Source: Nematostella vectensis (Eukaryota). Taken from it: a DNA stretch of 64,000 nucleotides. The stretch spans positions 3,184,996-3,248,995 of the forward strand of contig NC_064037.1 in assembly GCF_932526225.1 (NCBI RefSeq), given 5' to 3'. The notes under the pieces are model-generated. The model was given only the letters and a program-made list of their open reading frames with translations. It was not told the origin of the DNA and ran no database searches. The translations under genes and the position numbers were made by a program. How positions within the stretch are numbered: position 1 is the stretch's first letter; each line of letters begins with the position of its first letter. Below are positions 27,415-59,200 of this stretch, piece by piece.

Positions 27415-37462
<10,048 letters not shown>

Positions 37463-38204
37463 CATGGAATAACTAGTTGAACTTGATTGGTGCAATGGGA
37501 ACCTCGCAGTAGCATGGAATAACTAGTTTAACTGGTTATAAACCGGTTTTATAACCAGTAGACACCAATGTCTTCAAAGAAGAAAGTAGTTAATTCACAC
37601 ACACCAATAATTACAATTGATAATTTAATTAAACAATGCTACAATGATATGGATTTCATGCGATACTTTATCAGTAATTCACCCAGTAATAAAAGTGAAT
37701 GAATTAAATAATTCCCTCCGGGACCTCAGGATCGGTCCCCAATATTTAGTTGTTATACATTGTTACAAAATGAACGCACTTTAAAATAAATGTCTTCTCT
37801 ATTTTGCGTCTCGTTATCATCTATAACTGCTATACTGAAATATAAACATCTTCCCAAAAAACTTTGAATAAGAACACCTGTTTATGAAATGAAATTGTCA
37901 ACCTTATAGGCCAGATGTATGAGAAAAGAAAAACAATATTCACTTGCTTTTAGAATTCGGTCACGAACTGGTGTCCCCTGGATGACCCCTTTTAATATTA
38001 CAAGACAGTCCATGAGAAATAGAAGAAAAATATTATTTAAAATATTCAAATTAATTCGGCTGGCTATCCAGAGAGTTTGATTGTCTCTTGGTGCTACTTA
38101 TAGATATTAGAATAGCCAAATATTAGCGTTTGGTTGCAAGCAGAAAAAGGGTTTGGGTTTAGCTTTTGGGTTCCCGTCTATATCAGCGTTTGGTTAAACA
38201 CGAG

Positions 38205-46850: not shown

Positions 46851-48585
46851 TCTTTCGAATAAGCGCCTCCCCGAATAAGCTTCTCGCCGAATAAGCGTCT
46901 CGCCGAATATGCGTCTCGCCGAATAAGCGTCTCGCCGAATAAGCATCTCGCCGAATAAGCGTCTCGCCGAATAAGCATCTCGCCGAATAAGCGTCTCGCC
47001 AAATAAGCGTCTCGCCGAATAAGCGTCTCGCCGAATAAGCATCTCGCCGTATAAGCGTCTCGCCGAATAAGCGTCTCGCCGAATAAGCGTCTCGCCGGAT
47101 AAGCGTCTCGCCGAATAAGCATCTCGCCGAATAAGCGTCTCGCCGAATAAGCGTCTCGCCGAATAAGCATCTCGCCGTATAAGCGTCTCGCCGAATAAGC
47201 ATCTCGCCGAATAAGCGTCTCGCCGAATAAGCGTCTCGCCGAATAAGCGTCTCGCCGTATAAGCGTCTCGCCGAATAAGCATCTCGCCGAATAAGCGTCT
47301 CGCCGAATAAGCATCTCGCCGAATAAGCGTCTCGCCGAATAAGCGTCTCGCCGAATAAGCGTCTCGCCGAATAAGCGTCTCGCCGTATAAGCGTCTCGCC
47401 GAATAAGCGTCTCGCCGTATAAGCATCTCGCCGAATAAGCGTCTCGCCGAATAAGCGTCTCGCCGAATAAGCATCTCGCCGAATAAGCGTCTCGCCGAAT
47501 AAGCATCTCGCCGTATAAACGTCTCGCCGAATGAGCTTCTCGCCGAATGAGCTTCTCGCCGAATAAGCGTCTCGCCGAATAAGCGTCTCGTCGTATAAGC
47601 GTCTCGCCGAATAAGCATATCGCCGAATATGCGTCTCGCCGAATAAGCGTCTCGCCGAATAAGCATCTCGCCGAATAAGCGTCTCGCCGAATAAGCGTCT
47701 CGCCGAATAAGCGTCTCGCCGAATAAGCGTCTCGCCGTATAAGCGTCTCGCCGAATAAGCATCTCGCCGAATAAGCGTCTCGCCGAATAAGCATCTCGCC
47801 GAATAAGCGTCTCGCCGAATAAGCGTCTCGCCGAATAAGCGTCTCGCCGTATAAGCGTCTCGCCGTATAAGCGTCTCGCCGAATAAGCGTCTCGCCGTAT
47901 AAGCATCTCGCCGAATAAGCGTCTCGCCGAATAAGCGTCTCGCCGAATAAGCATCTCGCCGAATAAGCGTCTCGCCGAATAAGCATCTCGCCGTATAAGC
48001 GTCTCGCCGAATGAGCTTCTCGCCGAATAAGCGTCTCGCCGAATAAGCGTCTCGCCGTATAAGCGTCTCGCCGAATAAGCATATCGCCGAATATGCGTCT
48101 CGCCGAATAAGCATCTCGCCGAATAAGCATCTCGCCGTATAAGCGTCTCGCCGAATAAGCGCCTCGCCGAATAAGCATCTCGCCGTATAAGCGTCTCGAC
48201 GAATAAGCGTCTCGCCGAATAAGCGTCTCGCCGAATAAGCGTCTCGCCGGATAAGCGTCTCGCCGAATAAGCATCTCGCCGAATAAGCGTCTCGCCGAAT
48301 AAGCATCTCGCCGAATAAGCGTCTCGCCGAATAAGCGTCTCGCCGAATAAGCATCTCGCCGAATAAGCGTCTCGCCGAATAAGCGTCTCGACGAATAAGC
48401 GTCTCGCCGAATAAGCGTCTCGCCGAATAAGCGTCTCGCCGTATAAGCGTCTCGCCGTATAAGCGTCTCGCCGAATAAGCGTCTCGCCGAATAAGCATCT
48501 CGCCGAATAAGCGTCTCGCCGAATAAGCGTCTCGCCGAATAAGCGTCTCCCCGAATAAGCGTCTCGCCGAAATGAAAAATGAAAT
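46851..48585. repeat. 16-bp satellite (gaataagcgtctcgcc) x about 108, 1.7 kb
   Basis: Direct reading. Open in three minus-strand frames, giving artefact ORFs 46788-48615. Confidence 0.95.
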
Positions 48586-49005
48586 AAGCGCTCTAGTGCC
48601 AATTACGGTATGCATTTGTGTTGGAAATAGATAAAGGCAATTTATTGGGTATTTTAGAAACTAGAAGCTATACTCGACGCTTGATATTAATCGCATGACA
48701 TAAATGTTCACAGGAACGGGAAAAAATGTTTGTATAATCCAAATAAAAAATGAAAACCGCCCTTCGATGTTTTCAAACGAGAGAAGGATTTGTTATTCTG
48801 GGGGCCGCAACACAGCCTTCGCTTATTCTTAAACAGGAATTAGCTAAAACGACTTTGTCCAACAAGATAGCCATCTAAGCTAAAATAAATGCATTCAATG
48901 TCTGACCTTAGTGCCCGGTGCCCGTGGGTCGGTGGGTGGGGAGAGAGAGAGAAGTGTAAGGGCTTGTAATCGCAATGCATTCTGGGTCGGTTACGAAATT
49001 TCAAG

Positions 49006-49219
49006 ATGGCGGGCATAAGATGGAGTTTATGCACTGCCAGCCTTCGTTCTGTTATTCGCTCTCCGGCCCGGGCCAAAGCTACGAGAACCATAGCGACTTC
49101 AACACCGCCTAGTTTTATTTTTAAACGAATGACAGGTTCACCGTCTCTTTCCGTGGAAAGGGCAACGGACGCTCATTCAAAGGTTTTGACCGAGAGAGAA
49201 ACACTCTACGAGCTGGATG
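49006..49219 (+). CDS. NIPSNAP: NIPSNAP-like exon 1
   Basis: aagATGG start; Arg/Ser/Thr-rich presequence; donor GATG|GTAGGT. Confidence 0.8.
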
Positions 49220-52200
49220 GTAGGTGGATAAATTATTCGCTCTCATTTTTTTTACTATCAGTCTGATAGACTTAAATAAGCTCCGTTACTGTTGGGCAGA
49301 TTGCTGAAAATCTAGGAAAATAAATAAGGAATGCTTTAGCCATAAATCTTTGGACACCCGCCAGGTAAAACAAAAACTGTTCTACTTTGATATTTCAGTA
49401 AAGCAGAAGGTATTGTCTTACTACATCAACCTATTTCAAAAAACGTTGTCAGTTCAAATGCCGAATGACGATTAACAAATGACAGTTCTACAACCAAAAG
49501 GACCCATGGATCCCAAAATATTTACTCCAAATTCAGAAACATATACTGATAAAACATTTAACTTTCCATTAAATGTAATTAATTTATGGTTTTGACATCG
49601 CTTGAGCTTATAATCAATACCCATAAGCACCTTTCGGTAGAACTGCCATTTGGCAATTGCCATTCGCTGTTTGCACTGACAACCTTTATTTAAATAGGTA
49701 TATGTGTTAAAAAGCTTCCAGTGAAACAATCTGCTAATTATTACCCCCATTGTATATAATTTGACAATCAGTTATAGAATAGTCAAATGAGACTCTATTT
49801 TTGACACTGCACATCAGATGATGTGTCTGATTTGGCTTATTGTCAAAGCAATGTATATCATGCATGATCATATTATAAGTTTTGCAAAAATTGTGACAAA
49901 TAACCTAAGATAATCCTTCTGTTATTAATCTATTGGTCATTAAGAACTGGGGAGAGGGGACATCGAGAGCGGGTGGGAACGGCACGGCTCCCCTGGCATC
50001 TTTATTCAGTACAGCCTGGCAATAAAAATAAAGGAAGTAAGACAACATTGTCCTCTGTTTAGTAATAGCATCTAGTAATAATGTTTGAAGCACTTAAATG
50101 CTGTATAATTAATTATTACTCTACTTTCAGTCCAGCACATTAAACCAGAATGTATAGAGGACTTCATAGCTCTTGTGTAAGTGTGACACTAGTTAACAGA
50201 AACAGAAATGATGATCTTTATGCAACAACATGTTTTATTTTGCACCTATTTAGATCTGCCTTAAATAGCCTTTTTTAATCTTTCAAAAGTGGCAGTGTAT
50301 TTAGCTCATTTAGGTCATGAAATCTAGGCCTTAAACTCTTCTGTGGTGGGGTAGATGGCACCACAAGTGGAGGTTAACGTGCTTGTTGCTAACAAATTCA
50401 CCTAATAATCAGATAGGATAATATGTCACATTGAGAAGTATTGTCAATTTAGCGCAATTCAGCTAAAGGTGCAACTCTGATTCACTCTACATCAATTAAA
50501 TCAAATTAATACGGTACAAATAATTATCTTGATGTCCTGTTTTCCAGGAGTGAAACCCTCCCTAGGATTCATAATGACCCGGACTTCCCAGGCAAACTAG
50601 TTGGAAGCTGGACGACCATGTTTGGACAACTGGACAGAGCAAGTATGTATATCCTTCTCTTTATGTCTGATCTTGATTGTGATTGGTGAATGAAAAATGA
50701 ATTGAAATTCATTTCAATTCTTTATAACCTTTCATCATACTTATTCCATAAGTCAATGTTCATTGTAAATTTTCTTACTGCTACATGTATATGTGAGGTT
50801 GATCTACCTGTGAGATACTTGCCATTGAAAATAATAAATTATTTTAGTTCACCTGTGGCAGTTTCATGGGGGATATAATTCAGTTGTTAATGCCAAGCAG
50901 TACATCAGAGAAAATCCGGTAGGTCCACTCTTCTGATTTATAGATGATGTTTTTACAAATGTGCATTCAAGCAAATTACCAGGAAAGTGTAGATTTAGGT
51001 CGATTTCATGACCTCCATTTTGCAGCCCTGCAACAGCACAAAATTTCAGAAGGCCTGTATGATATTTACAGGGCTTCTGGAATTATGATTTTTTTTTCTT
51101 ATGAGATTATGCGCCAAATTTTGGAAAATTATGCCCCAAATATCACGAATTATGCGAATTTCGCAATACTTTGTAAGCGAAAATTTTAAGTACTTGAATT
51201 AATTAAACTTGCAAATCAAGCGTCTGAATGCAACAGATTGTTTATGTGTTGTGTTGCATTACTTAACTGAATCGGGACCCAAACCTTCAAATAGGGAATG
51301 AACAACAAAAACAACTTACTGACCAATCGTCAAATGTTTATCATGTAAATAAAATATATCAGTACAAAAATGACAAGCAACAAAGTTCTTACGCCACTTT
51401 ACATCGTATTACAAGCTGAACAAAATAGAAGATCATGATCAGCATGAAACTTTCCAGGATATTGGCTTGCCCAATCTTGAGGTGTTACATAACATTTCAG
51501 TTCTTGTTTGTTTCTTGAAATTATTTTGTGTCTTTGTTACAAAAGAATCCATTTTGATAGTGAAAACACAAGAAGGAGAGATTTCCCTAAGGTTTCCCCG
51601 CCAAAAATTCGAAGTGAGGCGCTATTTTCTTTCCTAAGCTGTGATTGGTTATATTTCTTCCAATAATGGCACGTAACAACCAAAGGTTGTTTTGCGAAGT
51701 TCAATCTTGTTTACAATAAAGCACTGTTAAAACACTGGCTTTTTGCTGCAAAAATGTACTATATTTACTGGGAAAATGTCCATGTATCTCTCAAGGTATG
51801 AAAAAAACATAGTTTATTAATTGTTTTGTCAATTTTTTTGCAAATTATGCACCATTATTCGTTTTTTTTTTTCGAATTATGCGCTCAGAGCGAAATTATG
51901 CGCTTTCGCATAAGCGCATAATCCAGGAAGCCCTGTATTTACTAAAGCTTCCTAAGTTTTGATACAAGGACTCTTTGATACCAATAGCAAGACTGACTAT
52001 TCTCTGCTATAGGAATATCTGCGGTTTGCAAGAGAGCGCCGTCACATGATGTACAGCAGAGAAAACCAGTTGCTCCATGAGTTCCACTTCTGGGGTGAAC
52101 CTGTTCCACGCACAGAGCCACACATTTATGAACTACGCACTTACCACCTCAAGGTACATACAGTATATATAACCTGCTTACACAGATTCACACATGAACA

Positions 52201-55098
52201 ACAGACCACTTTGAGGCAACCTGTTCCAGTCTGTCTTGATTAGGTGTACATATACATTGCCTTCCTAAAAATTATATTATGCTTCTTTTTTTTTTGTTTT
52301 GCCAGTGGCAAAATCCTTTTCCCTGCATATTGTTAGCATGCTTTTTTATATTGTGATTTTTTTTTGTGGTTTGCTTTTAGCCTGGAACCCTTATAGAATG
52401 GGGAAACAACTGGTGAGTCATTTTATGATTTTACAGATAATCACGTGGTTATTGTAATAAATGGGGGGATATGTGGCTCGAAGTGTATCCATCTACCAAG
52501 CCAATAGGATCACCCATACCCTTGACTTAATTTTGATGCAGCTTTAATTTTTTTATATTGACTGAGTCATGCCATTAACCTTAGGTTGTAAGTGATGTCC
52601 TCCGCGGCCGTGCCATTAACCTTAGGTTGTTGTGTCCTCAGGGGCCGTGCCATTAACCTTAGGTTGTTGTGTTCTCAGGGGCCGTGCCATTAACCTTAGG
52701 TTGTTGTGTCCTTAGGGGCCGTGCCATTAACCTTAGGTTGTTGTGTCCTCAGGGGCCGTGCCATTAACCTTAGGTTGTTGTGTCCTTAGGGGCCGTGCCA
52801 TTAACCTTAGGTTGTTGTGTCCTCAGGGACCGTGCTGTTAACCTTAGGTTTTTGTGTCCTTAGGGGCCGTGCCATTAACCTTAGGTTGTTGTGTCCTCAG
52901 GGGCCGTGCCATTAACCTTAGGTTGTTGTGTCCTCAGGGGCCGTGCCATTAACCTTAGGTTGTTGTGTCCTTAGGGGCCGTGCCATTAACCTTAGGTTGT
53001 TGTGTCCTCAGGGACCGTGCCGTTAACCTTAGGTTGTTGTGTCCTTAGGGGCCGTGCCATTAACCTTAGGTTGTTGTGTCCTCAGGGGCCGTGCCATTAA
53101 CCTTAGGTTGTTGTGTTCTCAGGGGCCGTGCCATTAACCTTAGGTTGTTGTGTCCTCAGGGGCCATGCCATTAACCTTAGGTTGTTGTGTCCTCAGGGGC
53201 CGTGCCATTAACCTTAGGTTGTTGTGTCCTAAGGGGCCATGCCATTAACCTTAGGTTGTTGTGTTCTCAGGGGCCGTGCCATTAACCTTAGGTTGTTGTG
53301 TCTTAGGGGCCGTGCCATTAACCTTAGGTTGTTGTGTCTTAGGGGCCGTGCCATTAACCTTAGGTTGTTGTGTCTTAGGGGCCGTGCCATTAACCTTAGG
53401 TTGTTGTGTCTTAGGGGCCGTGCCATTAACCTTAGGTTGTTGTGTCTTAGGGGCCGTGCCATTAACCTTAGGTTGTTGTGTCTTAGGGGCTGTGCCATTC
53501 ACTGTAGGGGTTGTGGTGTCCTTAGGGGCCGTGCCATTAACCTTAGGTTGTTGTGTTCTCAGGGGCCGTGCCATTAACCTTAGGTTGTTGTGTCTTAGGG
53601 GCCGTGCCATTAACCTTAGGTTGTTGTGTCTTAGGGGCCGTGCCATTAACCTTAGGTTGTTGTGTCTTAGGGGCTGTGCCATTCACTGTAGGGGTTGTGG
53701 TGTCCTTAGGGGCCATGCCATTAACCTTAGGTTGTTGTGTCCTCAGGGACCGTGCCATTAACCTTAGGTTGTTTTGTCCTCAGGGGCCGTGCCATTAACC
53801 TTAGGTTGTTGTGTCCTCAGGGGCTGTGCCATTAACCTTAGGTTGTTGTGTCCTCAGGGGCCGTGCCATTAACCTTAGGTTGTTGTGTCCTCAGGGGCCG
53901 TGCCATTAACCTTAGGTTGTTGTGTCCTCAGGGGCCATGCCATTAACCTTAGGTTGTTGTGTCCTCAGGGGCCGTGCCATTAACCTTAGGTTGTTGTGTC
54001 CTCAGGAGCCGTGCCATTAACCTTAGGTTGTTGTGTCCTCAGGGACCGTGCCATTGACCTTAGGTTGTTGTGTCCTAAGGGGCCATGCCATTAACATTAG
54101 GTTGTTGTGTTCTCAGGGGCCGTGCCATTAACCTTATGTTGTTGTTGCCTCAGGGGCCGTGCCATTAACCTTAGGTTGTTGTGTCCTCAGGGACCGTGCC
54201 ATTAACCTTAGGTTGTTGTGTCCTCAGGGGCCGTGCCATTAACCTTAGGTTGTTGTGTCCTCAGGGACTGTGCCATTGACCTTAGGTTGTTGTGTCCTAA
54301 GGGGCCATGCCATTAACCTTAGGTTGTTGTGTTCTCAGGGGCCGTGCCATTAAACTTCGCCAAGAGGAAGATGAGGCAGTTGGCGGATTCTTTTCACAAA
54401 TTGGGGAATTGTACATGGTGCACCATATATGGGGTTAGTGAAACCTTTCCATGACCTTTATTCAGGCACCCTTAGATCCTTACTGAGGTTATATTTGTGT
54501 TTGTTCTCAGCTTACAAGGATCTTGTGAAGCGCAAAGAGATTCGCCAAAACCTTTGGAACAATCCTGGGTGGGATGACTGCGTTGGTAACACTGGTACAT
54601 ATTAACAATATCTTAATAATTCCAACATTCATCTGTTGGTAACACTGGTACATATTAACAAATCTTTATAATTCCAACATTCATCTGTTGGTAACACTGG
54701 TACATATTAACAATATCTTAATAATTCCAACATTCATCTGTTGGTAACACTGGTACATATTAACAATATCTTTATAATTCCAACATTCATCTGTTGGTAA
54801 CACTGGTACATTAGCAATATCTTAATAATTCCAACATTCATCTGTTGGTAACACTGGTACATATTAACAATATCTTAATAATTCCAACATTTATTTTGTC
54901 GTTATCTATTTATCTTGTTGGTAACACTGGTACATTAACAATATCTCAATAATTCCAACATTCATTTTTGTCGTTATCTATTTATCTTGTTGTTAAGAAC
55001 TTTGTTCAACTGATTTCTACCTCATATTTTCAGTGCCTCTGATTCGCCGCATGGAATCTTGGGTAATGGTTCCTCTACCCTACTCACCTTCCAAGTGA
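49006..55098 (+). CDS. NIPSNAP: NIPSNAP-like gene span (9 exons, 277 aa; N-terminal mitochondrial presequence-like)
   Basis: Matches human NIPSNAP1 throughout: [36 protein letters not shown]; [21 protein letters not shown]; [20 protein letters not shown]; [94 protein letters not shown]; [47 protein letters not shown]. Summed CDS 834 nt. Exons: 49006-49219, 50131-50176, 50547-50641, 50848-50918, 52013-52153, 52381-52412, 54339-54433, 54511-54585, 55034-55098. Confidence 0.9.
50131..50176 (+). CDS. NIPSNAP: NIPSNAP-like exon 2 ([16 protein letters not shown])
   Basis: ctttcag| acceptor; donor GT|GTAAGT. Confidence 0.75.
50547..50641 (+). CDS. NIPSNAP: NIPSNAP-like exon 3
   Basis: ...[15 protein letters not shown] matches human LVGNWNTWYGEQDQA; donor A|GTATGT. 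Confidence 0.8.
50848..50918 (+). CDS. NIPSNAP: NIPSNAP-like exon 4
   Basis: [24 protein letters not shown]; donor CCG|GTAGGT. Confidence 0.8.
51040..51945. mobile_element. about 0.9-kb element with about 25-bp terminal inverted repeats (tacagggcttctggaattatg ... cataatccaggaagccctgta) and internal attatgcgc sub-repeats, in NIPSNAP-like intron 4
   Basis: TIRs read directly near 51055-51085 and 51918-51945; ORF 50944-51189 overlaps and is rejected. Confidence 0.5.
52013..52153 (+). CDS. NIPSNAP: NIPSNAP-like exon 5
   Basis: 47 codons, most conserved block; donor AAG|GTACAT. Confidence 0.9.
52381..52412 (+). CDS. NIPSNAP: NIPSNAP-like exon 6 ([10 protein letters not shown]+W)
   Basis: ttttag| acceptor; donor TG|GTGAGT. 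Confidence 0.85.
52571..54338 (+). repeat. 37-38-bp minisatellite x about 47, tandem amplification of the exon 7 3' splice site plus first 15 nt of exon 7
   Basis: Unit ttgttgtgtcctcag|GGGCCGTGCCATTAAccttagg. The real junction is gttgttgtgttctcag|GGGCCGTGCCATTAAActtcgcc. Spurious ORFs 53229-53798. Confidence 0.9.
54339..54433 (+). CDS. NIPSNAP: NIPSNAP-like exon 7 ((W)[31 protein letters not shown])
   Basis: The acceptor ttctcag| is the last unit of the upstream minisatellite; donor G|GTTAGT. Confidence 0.85.
54511..54585 (+). CDS. NIPSNAP: NIPSNAP-like exon 8 ([25 protein letters not shown])
   Basis: Donor G|GTAACA is the first unit of the downstream minisatellite. Confidence 0.85.
54586..54990 (+). 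repeat. 53-bp minisatellite x about 7 derived from the exon 8 5' splice site (ctgttg|GTAACACTGGTACATattaacaatatcttaataattccaacattcat)
   Basis: The real exon 8 end is gcgttg|GTAACACTGGTACAT. Each unit repeats the donor plus flanking nt. Confidence 0.9.
55034..55098 (+). CDS. NIPSNAP: NIPSNAP-like exon 9, terminal ([21 protein letters not shown], stop TGA)
   Basis: matches human [21 protein letters not shown]. Confidence 0.85.
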
Positions 55099-55892
55099 TT
55101 CCCTAAGAGCATCATGGGAATTCTGTATATAGTTCAGAGCTTAGCTTCTAGCTAAGATCACACGATAAACCAGTGAAAGACGGGAAATGAATGATGTTTA
55201 TTGTGAGAAAGGTCTCACCAATTATTATACTATCAATACCGAACTATCAGTAGATGCTCACAGTGACAATCGCATGTTATGGCTTAGCTATCTAACAACA
55301 ACATCTAACTTGCTCACACATACTTCTGCCATAGTTTAGTTATGCATATTTCTTTAGGGGTGTTTTATTGTTTGGCTGATTTGGGAAACACACGCTTATA
55401 ACACTTCATTTACTCCCTTGTTTAGCGGATTGTTGCGCATTTTACACCGATAAACTACTCTTATGATTCTTATGTCCATTTTTAAAATGAACCTTGCAAA
55501 AAGGCAAAGTCGATTCTTCGGTGTTTTAGTCCGGTTACGACCGTGCATTCTGCAGGTGTTAGATGATAGCAGTGTCTATTTGTGTAGATGAAAGCAGTGT
55601 CTATTTGTGCATCTATTCTGACCCGAAAAAAAAACATTAAGAGTTGCCCAGAGAGACTGATTGTAATGTTTTTTTTATTAAAAATATAACGTATTTCCGG
55701 TGTGTAATGGTACAAAAATCGAAACTCATTTGCAATATTCTCAGGGATGGATCATGCAGTTTAGAGACTCTTCTATACAACATATGGCGGGAGGTAAATT
55801 TTTGGATTTTAGCTCCCATTTATTTCTAAAATTTCATTCGGAAGGCGGAGTGGTTTCCGCCCCCTAGATCCGCCTCTGAATCCTCCCTCAGT

Positions 55893-56281
55893 TTAATCCA
55901 TAGTACAATATCTGATGTCACAACCCGCAGTTGGGCTAAGTCGGTATACATAAAACTTTCCACAATTCCGCACAAGCGCTGGAACCTTGTGGTAACAGCA
56001 GTCGTTGGCATAGTCCCCAAAACACACGTGTGTCATCACACAACCGTCTTCTTTTCGCGGGTGCTGACCGTACAGCCAGCCGGGAAATTTGGCGTTACAG
56101 CTGCCAGGGGCCTGGCACGACGTGGGCATTTTCGTGCCAGCATCCCCGGATATTCGGTACCAGCCCTCCGCGAGGTTTGCGTCACAGGAGCCCAGCATCT
56201 TAGAGCTGTGGACTTGGCGATCTCCGTCGTGGAGGAGGTTGTAGTGATGACATTCATACGCAACCTCCCCGACATCATAAC
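55893..56281 (-). CDS. exon 11, terminal: D8C domain (uromodulin/GP2-type) with stop TAA
   Basis: ECHHYNLL...CDANLAEGWYRISGDAGTKMPTSC...CNAKFPGWLYGQHPRKEDGCVMTHVCF...CCYHKVPALVRNCGKFYVYRL...CDIRYCT matches the D8C consensus (GWYRF, MPE.C, CNT..P.WLNG.HP, CC, C.GGYYVY.L, C..AYC); acceptor aaattccccag|GT. Confidence 0.75.
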
Positions 56282-59200
56282 CTGGGGAATTTAGACGGGA
56301 ATCGCACAAGTTTTAGTTTAGCAACAAAGTAAGCCTGGGGAAGTCACGAGAGTTTTAGCTAAACGACAACATAACCTGTGTAGTTCAGCCTTCATCATAT
56401 TACAATGTTCGTTCAGCTGTTGTATAAAGAAGAAGAATTTCGAGTGTTTCTGAATAGTACTTTAATGACCTTCCATTGTGGATACCCAGACAGAACGCCT
56501 TGGGTAGACTGTAAAGTTGGTAGCCGATCAAATAATCAATGGGTCAACGAGCTAGACTTACATATGAAACGAGTCCCACTCCATGGCTTACATATGGGAT
56601 GGGTCCCACTCCATGACTCACATAAGGGATGGGTCCTATTCCTTGACTTACATATTGGATGGGTCCCACTCCATGACTTACATATGGGATGGGTCCCACT
56701 CCATGACTTACATATGGGATGGGTCCCACTCCATGACTTACATATGGGATGGGTCCCACTTCATGACTTACATATGGGATGGGTCCTACTCCAAGACTTA
56801 CATATGGGATGGGTCCCACACCATGACTTACATATGGGATGGGTCCTACTCCATGACTTACATATGGAATGGGTCCCACTCCATGACTTACATATGGGAT
56901 GGGTCCCACTCCATGACTTACATATGGGATGGGTCCTACTCCATGACTTACATATGGAATGGGTCCCACTCCATGACTTACATATGGGATGGGTCCCACT
57001 CCATGACTTACATATGGGATGGGTCCCACTCCATGACTTACATATGGGATGGGTCCTACTCCATGACTTACATATGGGATAAGTCCCACTCCATGGCTTA
57101 CATATGGGATGGGTCCCACTCCATGACTTACATATGGGATGGGTCCCACTCCAAGACTTACATATGGGATAAGTCCCACTCCATGACTTACATATGGGAT
57201 GGGTCCCACTCCAAGACTTACATATGGAATGGGTCCCACTCCATGACTTACATATGGGATGGGTCCCACTCCAAGACTTACATATGGAATGGGTCCCACT
57301 CCATGACTTACATATGGGATGGGTCCCACTCCATGACTTACATATGGGATGGGTCCCACTCCATGACTAACATATTGGATGGGTCCCACTCCATGACTTA
57401 CATATGGGATGGGTCCCACTCCAAGACTTACATATGGGATGGGTCCCACTTCATGACTTACATATGGGATGGGTCCCACTTCATGACTTACATATGGGAT
57501 GGGTCCCACTCCAAGACTTACATATGGGATGGGTCCCACTCCATGACTTACATATGGGATGGGTCCCACTCCATTGACCATGCTCGGTACATATGCGCAC
57601 AGCCGAGCCATAGAGCATACATCCGGGCTTGCACGAGTACGTCACAGCACTGCCCACATGATAATCGTTGCCGCTGACCATTCCATTGAACAGAGGCTCG
57701 GGTTCCTTGCACGCTGCCAGACCTGGACAAGTAGAAGATTGGAGAGGAATGAGGTTTCACGTGGAGAAACGGGATTAAACAAAAAGGAACGAGATCAAAC
57801 AAGAAGGGACCAGATTACAGGAGAAGAAATAAGGAGCACACAAGAAGAAAATGGATTAGGAAAAGAAACTAGATTTTATGCAAGGAGGAGCACGAAAGAC
57901 GAGAAGGAACTAAAGTACACGAGGAGACTGAACAATGATAGATTACACGATGAAAATTACACGACGAGAAACAAGATTGCACGATGAGAAACTGGATCAA
58001 TCGAGAAGAAACTAGATTATATATTGAGGATCACGGGGACAATATTGAGAGATTATAACTTACAAGGAGAAACCAGATCAAACTCGTTTTGATATCGTGA
58101 ACAAGATTATTCCATGATGGTAATCTATTTTCTAGCGCATTACGTACTTAGCTGCGTGAAGTATCCGATCGGCTTCTCCAGAAACTTGGTTTTTGCGGCG
58201 CAAAAATATTTGCCCTGGTCAGCTGATGATGGACGTTGGATCGTGTAGACAGCGGTGAACTCGTCCTCATCCTTCAAGATCTTGGTTGGCAAGGCAACGT
58301 CATCTTTGTACCACGTGAGCGTTGGTGAAGGAGTGCCTTTGGCTGTACAGTTTAGGATGATCGGTGTGTTCACGTTTTTGATTTTGAGTGTGGCAGGGGC
58401 AACCTTAAGGAATTTGACAGCACCTGGAGAAATTAAGAAAGCAAAAAGACACAGACGTAATAAACCACGTGCCTTCGAATAATGCGCGTTCCATCGTTGA
58501 AAATGAAAGAAGTCTAGACACATCTGGGATAGTAGTTATTGGACTTACTAAACCTTTCCACAGTAACGTCTATTGCAGCAATGACGGAGCCCATAGGGCT
58601 GCTCGCGCGACAGATATACAGTCCCTCATCTTCCTGGGTAAAACATGTAGTAGATATGAACGTAAGCTTACATGGAGATTGAACAAATGGTTTGCAGTAC
58701 ATTTACAGTATCTAGTCATCTCGGTTGAAGCGTACAGTACTCAATCATGGCCTACGCGGCTTAGGGAGAAAAGGTTGGCTTTCTCCTGTAATCATCAAGA
58801 TAGTGCTTGGTTCTCTTGAACTATTTGCTTACCTTGTTGGGGTCGTTCAGATATAACACGCCCTGCACGACCTTGTGCCTTTCCTCCGACAACTTCTTGT
58901 CCCTAGTCCTTCTCCACGTCACCACAGGCTCCGGGTAGCCCTCAACCTTGCACTCCAGCTTGGTGGACGTGCTCTGGAACGCTGTCACTTTGCTCGGAGG
59001 TTTCTCTATGAACTTGGGTTTCGCTAAGAAAATACAAGTATGTAAAGGGCTGTCACTAAAACTTAATATAGACTACCCCCTCAGGGAAAACAAGAATATT
59101 TCGAGTATATTTCAATTTCCATTATCGCGTGTAAAAATTTAAAATTTATTCAAATAAGGTTGCACTCAAGAATCCATGTGTCGTTACCCGCGGTGGTCTA

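Follow-up and report, generated by a model that had tools for sequence, protein, structure and literature searches.

Introduction

The closest described systems to the array treated here are the 'mirages' of amphioxus, first reported in 2002 (as cited in PMC3087553). Cases include the globins BflGb6 and BflGb9 (PMC3087553), as well as PGBD5 and TnC (PMC3902484). In mirages, the repeat unit spans an exon–intron boundary and carries AG or GT signals, and one terminal copy is the authentic junction. They are found at 3′ boundaries (BflGb6) as well as at 5′ boundaries, several occur per genome, and they show concerted evolution and turnover. RT-PCR evidence indicates that they leave splicing undisturbed (PMC3087553, PMC3902484). 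The second system is the IVS7 VNTR of human F7, which contains five to nine identical donor copies, only the exon-adjacent one being used, as shown experimentally (PMC1557585). Two other systems are related more loosely. In the Rogers model of intron gain, duplication of an AGGT segment yields a duplicate with splice signals which is harmless and spliced out (PMC3265369, PMC4974935, PMC2891723). In the dual-specific splice sites of the UBC type, splice signals recur at the period of a tandem repeat, one AGGT serves as both donor and acceptor, and the intron measures a whole number of units (PMC10809524).

This work describes an array in intron 6 of a NIPSNAP homologue of the sea anemone Nematostella vectensis. 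It lies in a 64-kb window, i.e., the whole stretch of DNA that was analysed (64,000 nucleotides of contig NC_064037.1), to which all coordinates refer. Judged by its sequence, the array is a further case of the class already described in amphioxus and human F7; in the open-access literature, no report of such arrays from Nematostella or any other cnidarian was found.

The NIPSNAP Gene and Its Authentic Acceptor

A nine-exon model that uses the last acceptor of the array encodes a 280-aa open reading frame, 100% identical to RefSeq XP_048582586.1, a model that may itself be partly homology-driven. This bears out the gene identity given in a preliminary description of the DNA, which had proposed a NIPSNAP homologue with the array in intron 6. 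In this model, on the plus strand, exon 6 (52381..52412) ends with the first two bases of a W codon at the donor CTG/gtgagt. Intron 6 (52413..54338) has 1926 nt, made up of 156 nt of unique sequence and 1770 nt of array, and its authentic acceptor AG is located at 54337..54338 (ttgttgtgttctcag/GGGCC). Exon 7 (54339..54433, 95 nt) ends at the donor GGG/gttagt, and exon 8 (54511..54594) ends as ...GGTAACACTG/gtacat, the orthologues ending at CVANT. Between 48500 and 58000, no match to an Rfam family was found.

The position and phase of intron 6 (TG/G) are the same in Actinia, Exaiptasia, Actinostola, and one vertebrate locus. Actinia tenebrosa has a 460-nt intron at this position with a single acceptor, tgttctcag/GGG, which resembles the authentic Nematostella acceptor and shares with it the final intronic bases tgttctcag; Exaiptasia and Actinostola likewise have a single acceptor. 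The authentic acceptor is therefore fixed by the identity to the RefSeq protein, the conserved intron position and phase, and the Actinia-like acceptor. The orthologous intron comparison that had been suggested as a check thus gave one acceptor, at the same position, in all three sea anemones, and the claim that only the last copy leads into conserved NIPSNAP sequence holds by both gene model and homology. A normal NIPSNAP protein is made only if this exon-adjacent copy is chosen.

The same comparison bears on the direction of the copying. As for any repeat that overlaps a boundary, it is logically possible that the exon came from the repeat, exon 7 having taken its acceptor and first bases from an older satellite or an array of transposon origin; nothing specific speaks for this here. 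Conservation of GRAI(K), the peptide encoded by the 15 exon bases in the unit, extends from cnidarians to vertebrates, the intron end tgttctcag is also present in Actinia, and the unit is found nowhere else in the window, all of which make this origin scarcely credible.

Anatomy of the Array

Tandem Repeats Finder (TRF) reports the region 52570–54357 as a repeat of period 37 with 48.4 copies, 93% matches, 0% indels, and a score of 2993. The array opens with a degenerate first unit (52569..52609, plus strand, 41 nt), in which CCG replaces AG and which therefore does not count among the decoy acceptors. After it come 47 tandem units of 36, 37, or 39 bp (52610..54343, plus strand), namely 46 decoys and the authentic site, in the register GTGCCATTAACC...YAG/GGGCC; the last 5 nt of this span are already exon 7. 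Counted in the acceptor register, the earlier figures of 47 copies and 46 decoys are correct, whereas the unit size given as 37–38 bp has to be amended: the unit parse yields mostly 37-bp units, one block of 36-bp units, and two of 39 bp. The 47 AG-bearing copies comprise 28 CAG, 16 TAG, and 3 AAG, and the exon-like parts of the 46 decoys begin at 52642 in the first and at 54302 in the last.

The 37-bp unit is composed of 22 nt of intron and 15 nt that match the opening bases of exon 7, the repeated exon part being exactly GGGCCGTGCCATTAA; the make-up proposed earlier (the acceptor of exon 7 and the 15 nt that follow it) is confirmed by the sequence. At position 16 after the acceptor AG, the repeats have C and the real exon 7 has A, a base that separates the authentic continuation (...GGGCCGTGCCATTAAACTTCGCC) from that of the decoys (...GGGCCGTGCCATTAACCTTAGG). 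When the consensus unit was searched for with at most three mismatches, all 35 matches fell within the array (0 expected from shuffles), and it was not found elsewhere in the 64-kb window.

The array, with its boundary-spanning units, is real. Assemblies are prone to errors at tandem repeats, and in principle the repeat might be mis-expanded or collapsed, or the gene copy non-functional. This is hardly to be believed here: the array comprises 20 distinct unit variants in ordered higher-order blocks, its units have three different lengths, the window contains many comparable arrays, and the nine-exon reading frame is intact and identical to the RefSeq protein. The final 111 bp of the array share 98.2% identity with the block lying 222 bp upstream, which shows directly that the array is still turning over. 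Its homogeneity is due to this recent block duplication.

Comparison With Mirages and Related Systems

Like the amphioxus mirages, the NIPSNAP array is a head-to-tail repeat with a unit of minisatellite size, each unit containing both intron and exon sequence; by annotation and homology, its terminal copy is authentic and the others are intronic. The differences concern scale, host, and dynamics. There are 47 copies in NIPSNAP versus 3–6 in BflGb6, the unit is 37 bp versus 150–160 bp in the amphioxus globins, and the host is a cnidarian and not a cephalochordate. In addition, the exon-proximal NIPSNAP unit takes part in the recent block duplication, whereas the edges of the BflGb6 cluster are excluded from homogenisation.

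With the F7 VNTR, the array shares a 37-bp minisatellite (a coincidence), a terminal element that spans the exon–intron boundary, and copies identical to the authentic site. However, F7 repeats a donor (5–9 copies), while the intron 6 array repeats, in 47 copies, an acceptor together with its pyrimidine tract and putative branch point. The experiments behind the F7 rule, according to which the most upstream donor wins, concern donors. A donor repeat of the F7 type is present in the 53-bp array of NIPSNAP itself (54582–54996, see below), and the true F7 analogues in the window are the arrays labelled m, c, n, and p.

The other two systems differ more deeply. In contrast to the Rogers model, the NIPSNAP intron is ancestral and common to vertebrates, and the duplication has made it longer without creating a new one. 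Intron gain by tandem duplication was accordingly rejected, since the intron position is present in Actinia, Exaiptasia, Actinostola, and the vertebrate locus. Unlike in UBC, the donor of the NIPSNAP intron is placed outside the array, in unique sequence, and GG rather than GT comes after the decoy AG.

Decoy Acceptors as Splice-Site Modules

Every unit looks like a complete 3′ splice-site module, with a TTAAC branch-point match 22–25 nt upstream, a weak G-interrupted pyrimidine tract, and then the AG; the tract that had been noted at each of the 46 decoys is kept in all of them, though it is weak. At the authentic site, TTAAC (54313..54317, plus strand) is the sole yUnAy match within 50 nt upstream and the candidate branch point. 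Its A at 54316 is 23 nt before exon 7, and the motif is located where, in the last unit, exon-derived sequence gives way to intron-derived sequence. Neighbouring acceptor copies are spaced at 36–39 nt, and none shares its yUnAy match or tract with another, an arrangement that led to the rejection of NAGNAG or short-range tandem acceptors (AGs 3–12 nt apart with one shared branch point and tract).

All 46 decoys lead to a premature stop if used, each adding 37n (or 36/39) nt. Their exon-like parts carry nonsynonymous changes (G>D, R>H, and R>C), none of which is found in the real exon 7. Recursive (ratchet) splicing after decoy use was rejected: the decoy AG is followed by GGRCY, never by GT, and the exon 6 end CTG joined to GGGCC creates no GT. 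Masking of the decoys by RNA structure was also rejected (z = 0.00 versus shuffles for a fold of the last five units plus exon 7).

Proposed Selection of the Last Copy

From -23 to +15, a span of 38 nt, four decoys do not differ from the authentic site, and discrimination must therefore rest entirely on sequence beyond +15. The purine-rich stretch AAGAGGAAGATGAGG (54362..54376, plus strand; exon 7 +24..+38) is absent downstream of all decoys. It is a candidate exonic splicing enhancer, by analogy with purine-rich enhancers in general. The last copy would be chosen by exon definition: it alone has the enhancer-like stretch behind it and a 5′ splice site at a distance of 95 nt downstream, and the weak pyrimidine tract would make the acceptor enhancer-dependent. 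Exon definition favours the splice sites closest across the exon (PMC9225289). The decoys are thus predicted to be silent in vivo, and any occasional use would be cleared by nonsense-mediated decay (NMD).

Only 229 nt separate the exon 6 donor from the first decoy, which favours pairing by intron definition. In human data, upstream 3′ splice sites are generally preferred, and exon definition only lessens this bias (PMC9225289). This human preference counts against choice of the last copy.

It also lends some weight to an adaptive interpretation, according to which the decoys act as a splicing rheostat, sending a copy-number-dependent share of transcripts to premature termination and NMD, or as a sink for U2AF or U2, and thereby tune NIPSNAP output. 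The array is large and homogeneous, and all 46 decoys retain the branch-point match, the tract, and the AG, and lead to premature stops. Against this, three other sea anemones live without the array, its homogeneity is accounted for by recent block duplication, and a like architecture recurs in unrelated genes (MVP and an Ig/Sushi gene) about as often as random seeding would lead one to expect. Six predicted decoy-spliced or intron-retained products were absent from about 15 billion catalogued proteins by exact look-up, which is weak evidence. On balance, a rheostat seems very unlikely.

Other Junction-Spanning Arrays in the Window

Besides the intron 6 array, the 64-kb window contains four clear and a fifth probable junction-spanning array. 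A second one lies in NIPSNAP itself (54582..54996, plus strand): its 53-bp unit consists of the last 13 nt of exon 8, the donor GTACAT, and 34 nt of intron, it provides one authentic and six decoy donors, and it occupies most of the 439-nt intron 8. Donor arrays are also found at 28527–29804, and on the minus strand at 57574–56555 and 60137–59781. The genes affected include MVP and an Ig/Sushi gene. At these other junctions, the exon-adjacent copy gives a protein collinear with the orthologue; for MVP, collinearity was judged against an orthologue, and a homology search with its exons matched only other species.

This recurrence could point to a transcription- or splicing-linked mutational process that generates minisatellites preferentially at Nematostella junctions, the array being its footprint. 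Five to six of the 16 arrays in the window span junctions, where uniform placement across the whole window predicts 0.7–1.4 (P of about 0.0007–0.013 for at least five), and the mechanism of amphioxus mirages is described as unclear (PMC3087553). Nevertheless, when uniform seeding takes intron length into account, 3.05 of the 11 genic arrays are expected, versus 5–6 observed (P = 0.14 for at least five and 0.04 for at least six). Conditioning on short introns thus leaves only an approximately two-fold excess, and these statistics come from one 64-kb window, over the rest of which the exon annotation is incomplete. The intron-length-aware null removes most of the whole-window excess, a junction-targeted origin is not claimed, and such a process appears quite unlikely. 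Given short ancestral introns, junction-spanning arrays are about as frequent as uniform seeding predicts, which fits tolerance rather than targeting or selection.

Origin of the Array

Since Actinia, Exaiptasia, and Actinostola each have one acceptor at this intron position, the intron 6 array is lineage-specific and arose in the Nematostella lineage. A 37-bp duplication across the junction of intron 6 and exon 7, with 22 nt from the intron and 15 nt from the exon, would have seeded it; slippage or unequal exchange would then have expanded it to 47 units, taking the intron from about 190 nt in the ancestor to 1926 nt. Expansion of such a junction-spanning duplication by one of these two routes is the most likely mechanism. 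We consider it fairly likely that the array is a 'mirage'-type minisatellite, tolerated as a near-neutral by-product, whose last acceptor is picked by exon definition. It is probably a by-product of a minisatellite-rich genome with short introns, and not an adaptation or a device.

Implications

The NIPSNAP array is less novel because its class has been described and several similar arrays occur in the same window. It is, nonetheless, the most extreme acceptor-side example found of the class of amphioxus mirages and F7: 46 intact 3′ splice-site modules precede the sole productive acceptor of a conserved mitochondrial-protein gene, and the gene model is intact. In practice, it should also put gene predictors and junction mappers on their guard.

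A bolder interpretation seems unlikely to us, namely that boundary-spanning minisatellites are a systematic, undescribed feature of Nematostella, preferentially made or kept at junctions, and that NIPSNAP output depends on copy number through decoy splicing and NMD. If it were true, cnidarian 'mirages' would be a natural assay of how a non-bilaterian spliceosome chooses among identical sites, as well as a source of heritable expression variation.

As regards the reading preferred here, that of a tolerated by-product, the array shows how short Nematostella introns can inflate ten-fold. Since Nematostella is injectable and has rich RNA-seq resources, the locus offers a natural minigene series for the rules of 3′ splice-site selection. 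The findings suggest that Nematostella puts up with duplicated splice junctions almost as readily as with duplications confined to introns, a tolerance that would imply a strongly exon-anchored choice of splice sites in a cnidarian.

Extent and Anatomy of the Array

The NIPSNAP gene lies on the plus strand and comprises nine exons, located by a tblastn search in which human NIPSNAP1 served purely as the probe. The ORF read from its splice sites (9 exons, 843 nt, 280 aa) gives a product identical to RefSeq XP_048582586.1, "protein NipSnap homolog 1-like [Nematostella vectensis]" (identity 100%, coverage 100%). Intron 6 measures 1926 nt, 1770 nt of which are array and just 156 nt unique sequence. 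In 52300-54700, a head-to-tail, near-perfect repeat runs into coding sequence; TRF delimits it at 52570-54357, with period 37 and 48.4 copies that match at 93% and show no indels. Parsed into units, it consists of a diverged first unit (52569-52609), with CCG in the AG position, and 47 further units, mostly of 37 bp, with one block of 36-bp units and two of 39 bp. Aligned on the acceptor, 47 copies have a terminal AG (28 CAG, 16 TAG and 3 AAG), and next to it comes GGGCCGTGCCATTAA or a closely similar sequence. One is the authentic acceptor and 46 are decoys, that is, copies other than the exon-adjacent one, just as the preliminary description had counted; of its unit size of 37-38 bp, the 37 bp holds for most units and the 38 bp does not, the others being 36 or 39 bp. 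The consensus unit has 35 matches at ≤3 mismatches, all within the array, and none in shuffles. In the public model, exon 7 is entered at the last acceptor (start 54339), which had been proposed as the functional one, and exon 8 is left by its first donor (exon end 54594).

A single unit joins 22 nt of intron end (CCTTAGGTTGTTGTGTYCTYAG) to the initial 15 nt of exon 7, the composition originally suggested. At the meeting point of the exon-derived and intron-derived parts sits TTAAC, which fits the metazoan branch-point consensus yUnAy and is, according to a motif scan, the sole match to it within 50 nt upstream for almost all copies, among them the authentic one. The A of this motif precedes the exon-like start by 22-25 nt. 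Another AG occurs 5-6 bases past this A, too near for use under general AG-scanning rules, and the next one is the YAG of the unit. The pyrimidine tract reported for each decoy is indeed present, though weak, G-interrupted and 65% pyrimidine. Since branch-point match, tract and YAG recur in each unit and the nearer AG is too close, every unit looks, from its sequence, like a self-contained 3′ splice-site module, and the authentic acceptor appears to rely on a candidate branch point supplied by the array. Four decoys (exon-like starts 52679, 53123, 53271 and 53563) match the authentic site exactly from -23 to +15.

Origin and Turnover

The position and phase of the intron are common to three other sea anemones, and all three have a single acceptor. 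In Actinia tenebrosa this is tgtgtcattttgttctcag/GGGTCGTGCTATCAAG, in an intron of 460 nt; in the short-read assembly of Exaiptasia diaphana a gap follows 160 bp of unique sequence; and Actinostola sp. carries an unrelated 23-bp array in mid-intron. Intron gain is rejected because the position is ancestral. As tgttctcag/GGG is common to the Nematostella and Actinia acceptors, the comparison shows that the repeat came from an ancestral junction and not the junction from the repeat. It probably arose by slippage or unequal exchange. The array contains 20 unit variants in ordered blocks (ABCACDEAACDFABAGHIJJJJJKLBJJKLMNOAAAGPDQRSDATQI), a pattern which argues against an assembly artefact. The final 111 bp, with the authentic acceptor within, are 98.2% identical to a block 222 bp upstream, so that the exon-proximal end has shared in recent block duplication. 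The array is boundary-spanning, lineage-specific, and continuing to turn over.

Other Minisatellites in the Window

The 64-kb window holds 16 minisatellite arrays (17.5% of its length), of which five, the NIPSNAP intron 6 array included, clearly span a splice junction and one probably does. Array m (54582-54996, plus strand) takes up most of the 439-nt NIPSNAP intron 8; its 53-bp unit, made up of the terminal 13 nt of exon 8, GTACAT and intron, provides one authentic donor and six decoys, whose use would shift the frame, and an extra donor-like site, GTTG/GTAACA, in each unit. Array c (28527-29804, plus strand, 33 bp) repeats the donor of an exon of the major vault protein (MVP) gene (...DEWLFEGPG) in 40 copies. 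Its authentic donor, GTACAG, is farther from consensus than the decoys, mostly GTATGT (33); the unit length is divisible by 3, and across the array the reading frame of the exon remains open for 418 codons. On the minus strand, array n (57574-56555) has a 30-bp unit in which the final 23 nt of a Sushi-domain exon (...GQWSGTHPI) are followed by GTAAGTC, with 34 donor copies, 30 of them with a perfect GTAAGT; this unit is also a multiple of 3, yet some units contain in-frame stops. Array p (60137-59781, minus strand) has five donor copies in units of ~75 bp, each combining the terminal 38 nt of an Ig I-set exon (...SARAATDIIVA) with GTAAGT and ~35 nt of intron; it belongs with the Sushi exon to one gene, in which collagen-like, Ig and uromodulin-like D8C exons are present as well. 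Array d (32901-33107, plus strand; 5.5 copies of 35 bp, 85% match) extends without loss of register into the acceptor TTGCCTCAG/G of another MVP exon and is probably an older acceptor-spanning array with a diverged exon part. At every junction-spanning array, the exon-adjacent copy gives an orthologue-collinear or domain-complete protein.

Under uniform placement over the whole window, a rough null, 0.7-1.4 of the 16 arrays would span a junction; the observed number is 5-6 (for ≥5, P about 0.0007-0.013). Without their arrays, the ancestral introns are short, at about 90-700 nt, and if seeds fall in or beside them, 3.05 of 11 genic arrays are expected to do so (P = 0.14 for ≥5 and 0.04 for ≥6), a null which is rough as well. 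In our reading, a duplication that spans a junction is roughly as viable as one confined to an intron; a junction-targeted mechanism is not claimed.

In the last MVP intron, about 579 nt long, a 71-bp array (36817-37337, plus strand) occupies 521 nt and ends 8 nt before the acceptor, with no recognisable exon sequence in its unit. A 50-bp tandem duplication of two copies (37434-37533, plus strand) covers the last MVP codons and the stop (GAMGTSQ, stop), thereby straddling the CDS/3′UTR boundary. Upstream of NIPSNAP, a 16-bp array (CGAATAAGCGTCTCGC) of 107 copies (46856-48571, plus strand) ends about 435 bp before the start codon (49006), with lone AATAAGCG motifs in each of its two flanks. The Actinostola NIPSNAP orthologue likewise has large intronic arrays (L001 11197-11857, 12561-13341 and 13985-16000; 23 bp x29, 41 bp x~19 and 17 bp x116), none spanning a junction; the 41-bp unit holds TACTAAC (branch-point-like) and TTTCCAG (acceptor-like). 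Several introns of the window are mostly array, and intron length here therefore depends to a large extent on minisatellite growth.

Decoy Use and Proposed Choice of the Last Copy

Every decoy is signal-complete and would be non-productive. Joining exon 6 to any of them leads to a premature stop, at codon 212-302 compared with the normal codon 281, and none of these paths returns to the NIPSNAP frame. The exon-like parts contain nonsynonymous variants missing from the real exon (G>D, R>H, R>C, G>S), as expected for untranslated sequence. Re-splicing after decoy use is ruled out, since GT follows none of the decoy AGs. Masking of the decoys by RNA structure is not supported, since exon 7 together with the five units before it folds no more stably than shuffles (z = 0.00). 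No Rfam family matched 48500-58000, and no catalogued protein fitted decoy use or intron retention, which is weak evidence.

Exon definition would pick the last copy. Only this copy is followed by AAGAGGAAGATGAGG (54362-54376), purine-rich and resembling a classical enhancer, and has a 5′ splice site 95 nt further downstream; with a weak tract, the site should depend on an enhancer. According to PMC9225289, exon definition entails preference for the sites nearest across the exon. In human F7, of 5-9 identical donors just the one next to the exon is spliced (PMC1557585), and amphioxus mirages, minisatellites whose unit straddles an exon-intron boundary, leave splicing undisturbed (PMC3087553, PMC3902484). 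According to PMC9225289 as well, upstream 3′ sites are favoured in general in human data and exon definition just weakens this bias. The first decoy lies only 229 nt from the exon 6 donor, and a partial leak into NMD substrates is therefore plausible.

Relation to Known Arrangements

The array has the structure of an amphioxus mirage, in another phylum (Cnidaria) and with 47 copies; unlike those mirages, its exon-proximal unit takes part in homogenisation. The human F7 IVS7 37-bp VNTR (PMC1557585) is the donor-side version of this class. The array is neither a NAGNAG tandem acceptor nor a UBC-type dual-specific site (PMC10809524), and a recursive splice site is rejected by the missing GT after decoy AGs. 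Searches of open-access papers turned up no report of this kind of array for Nematostella or any other cnidarian. TRF, the unit parse, the RefSeq-identical model and the orthologous introns confirm the initial observation and support its interpretation. The array is an extreme cnidarian case of an already described class, most likely a tolerated by-product, and the locus is a striking natural setting in which to test how 3′ splice sites are chosen.
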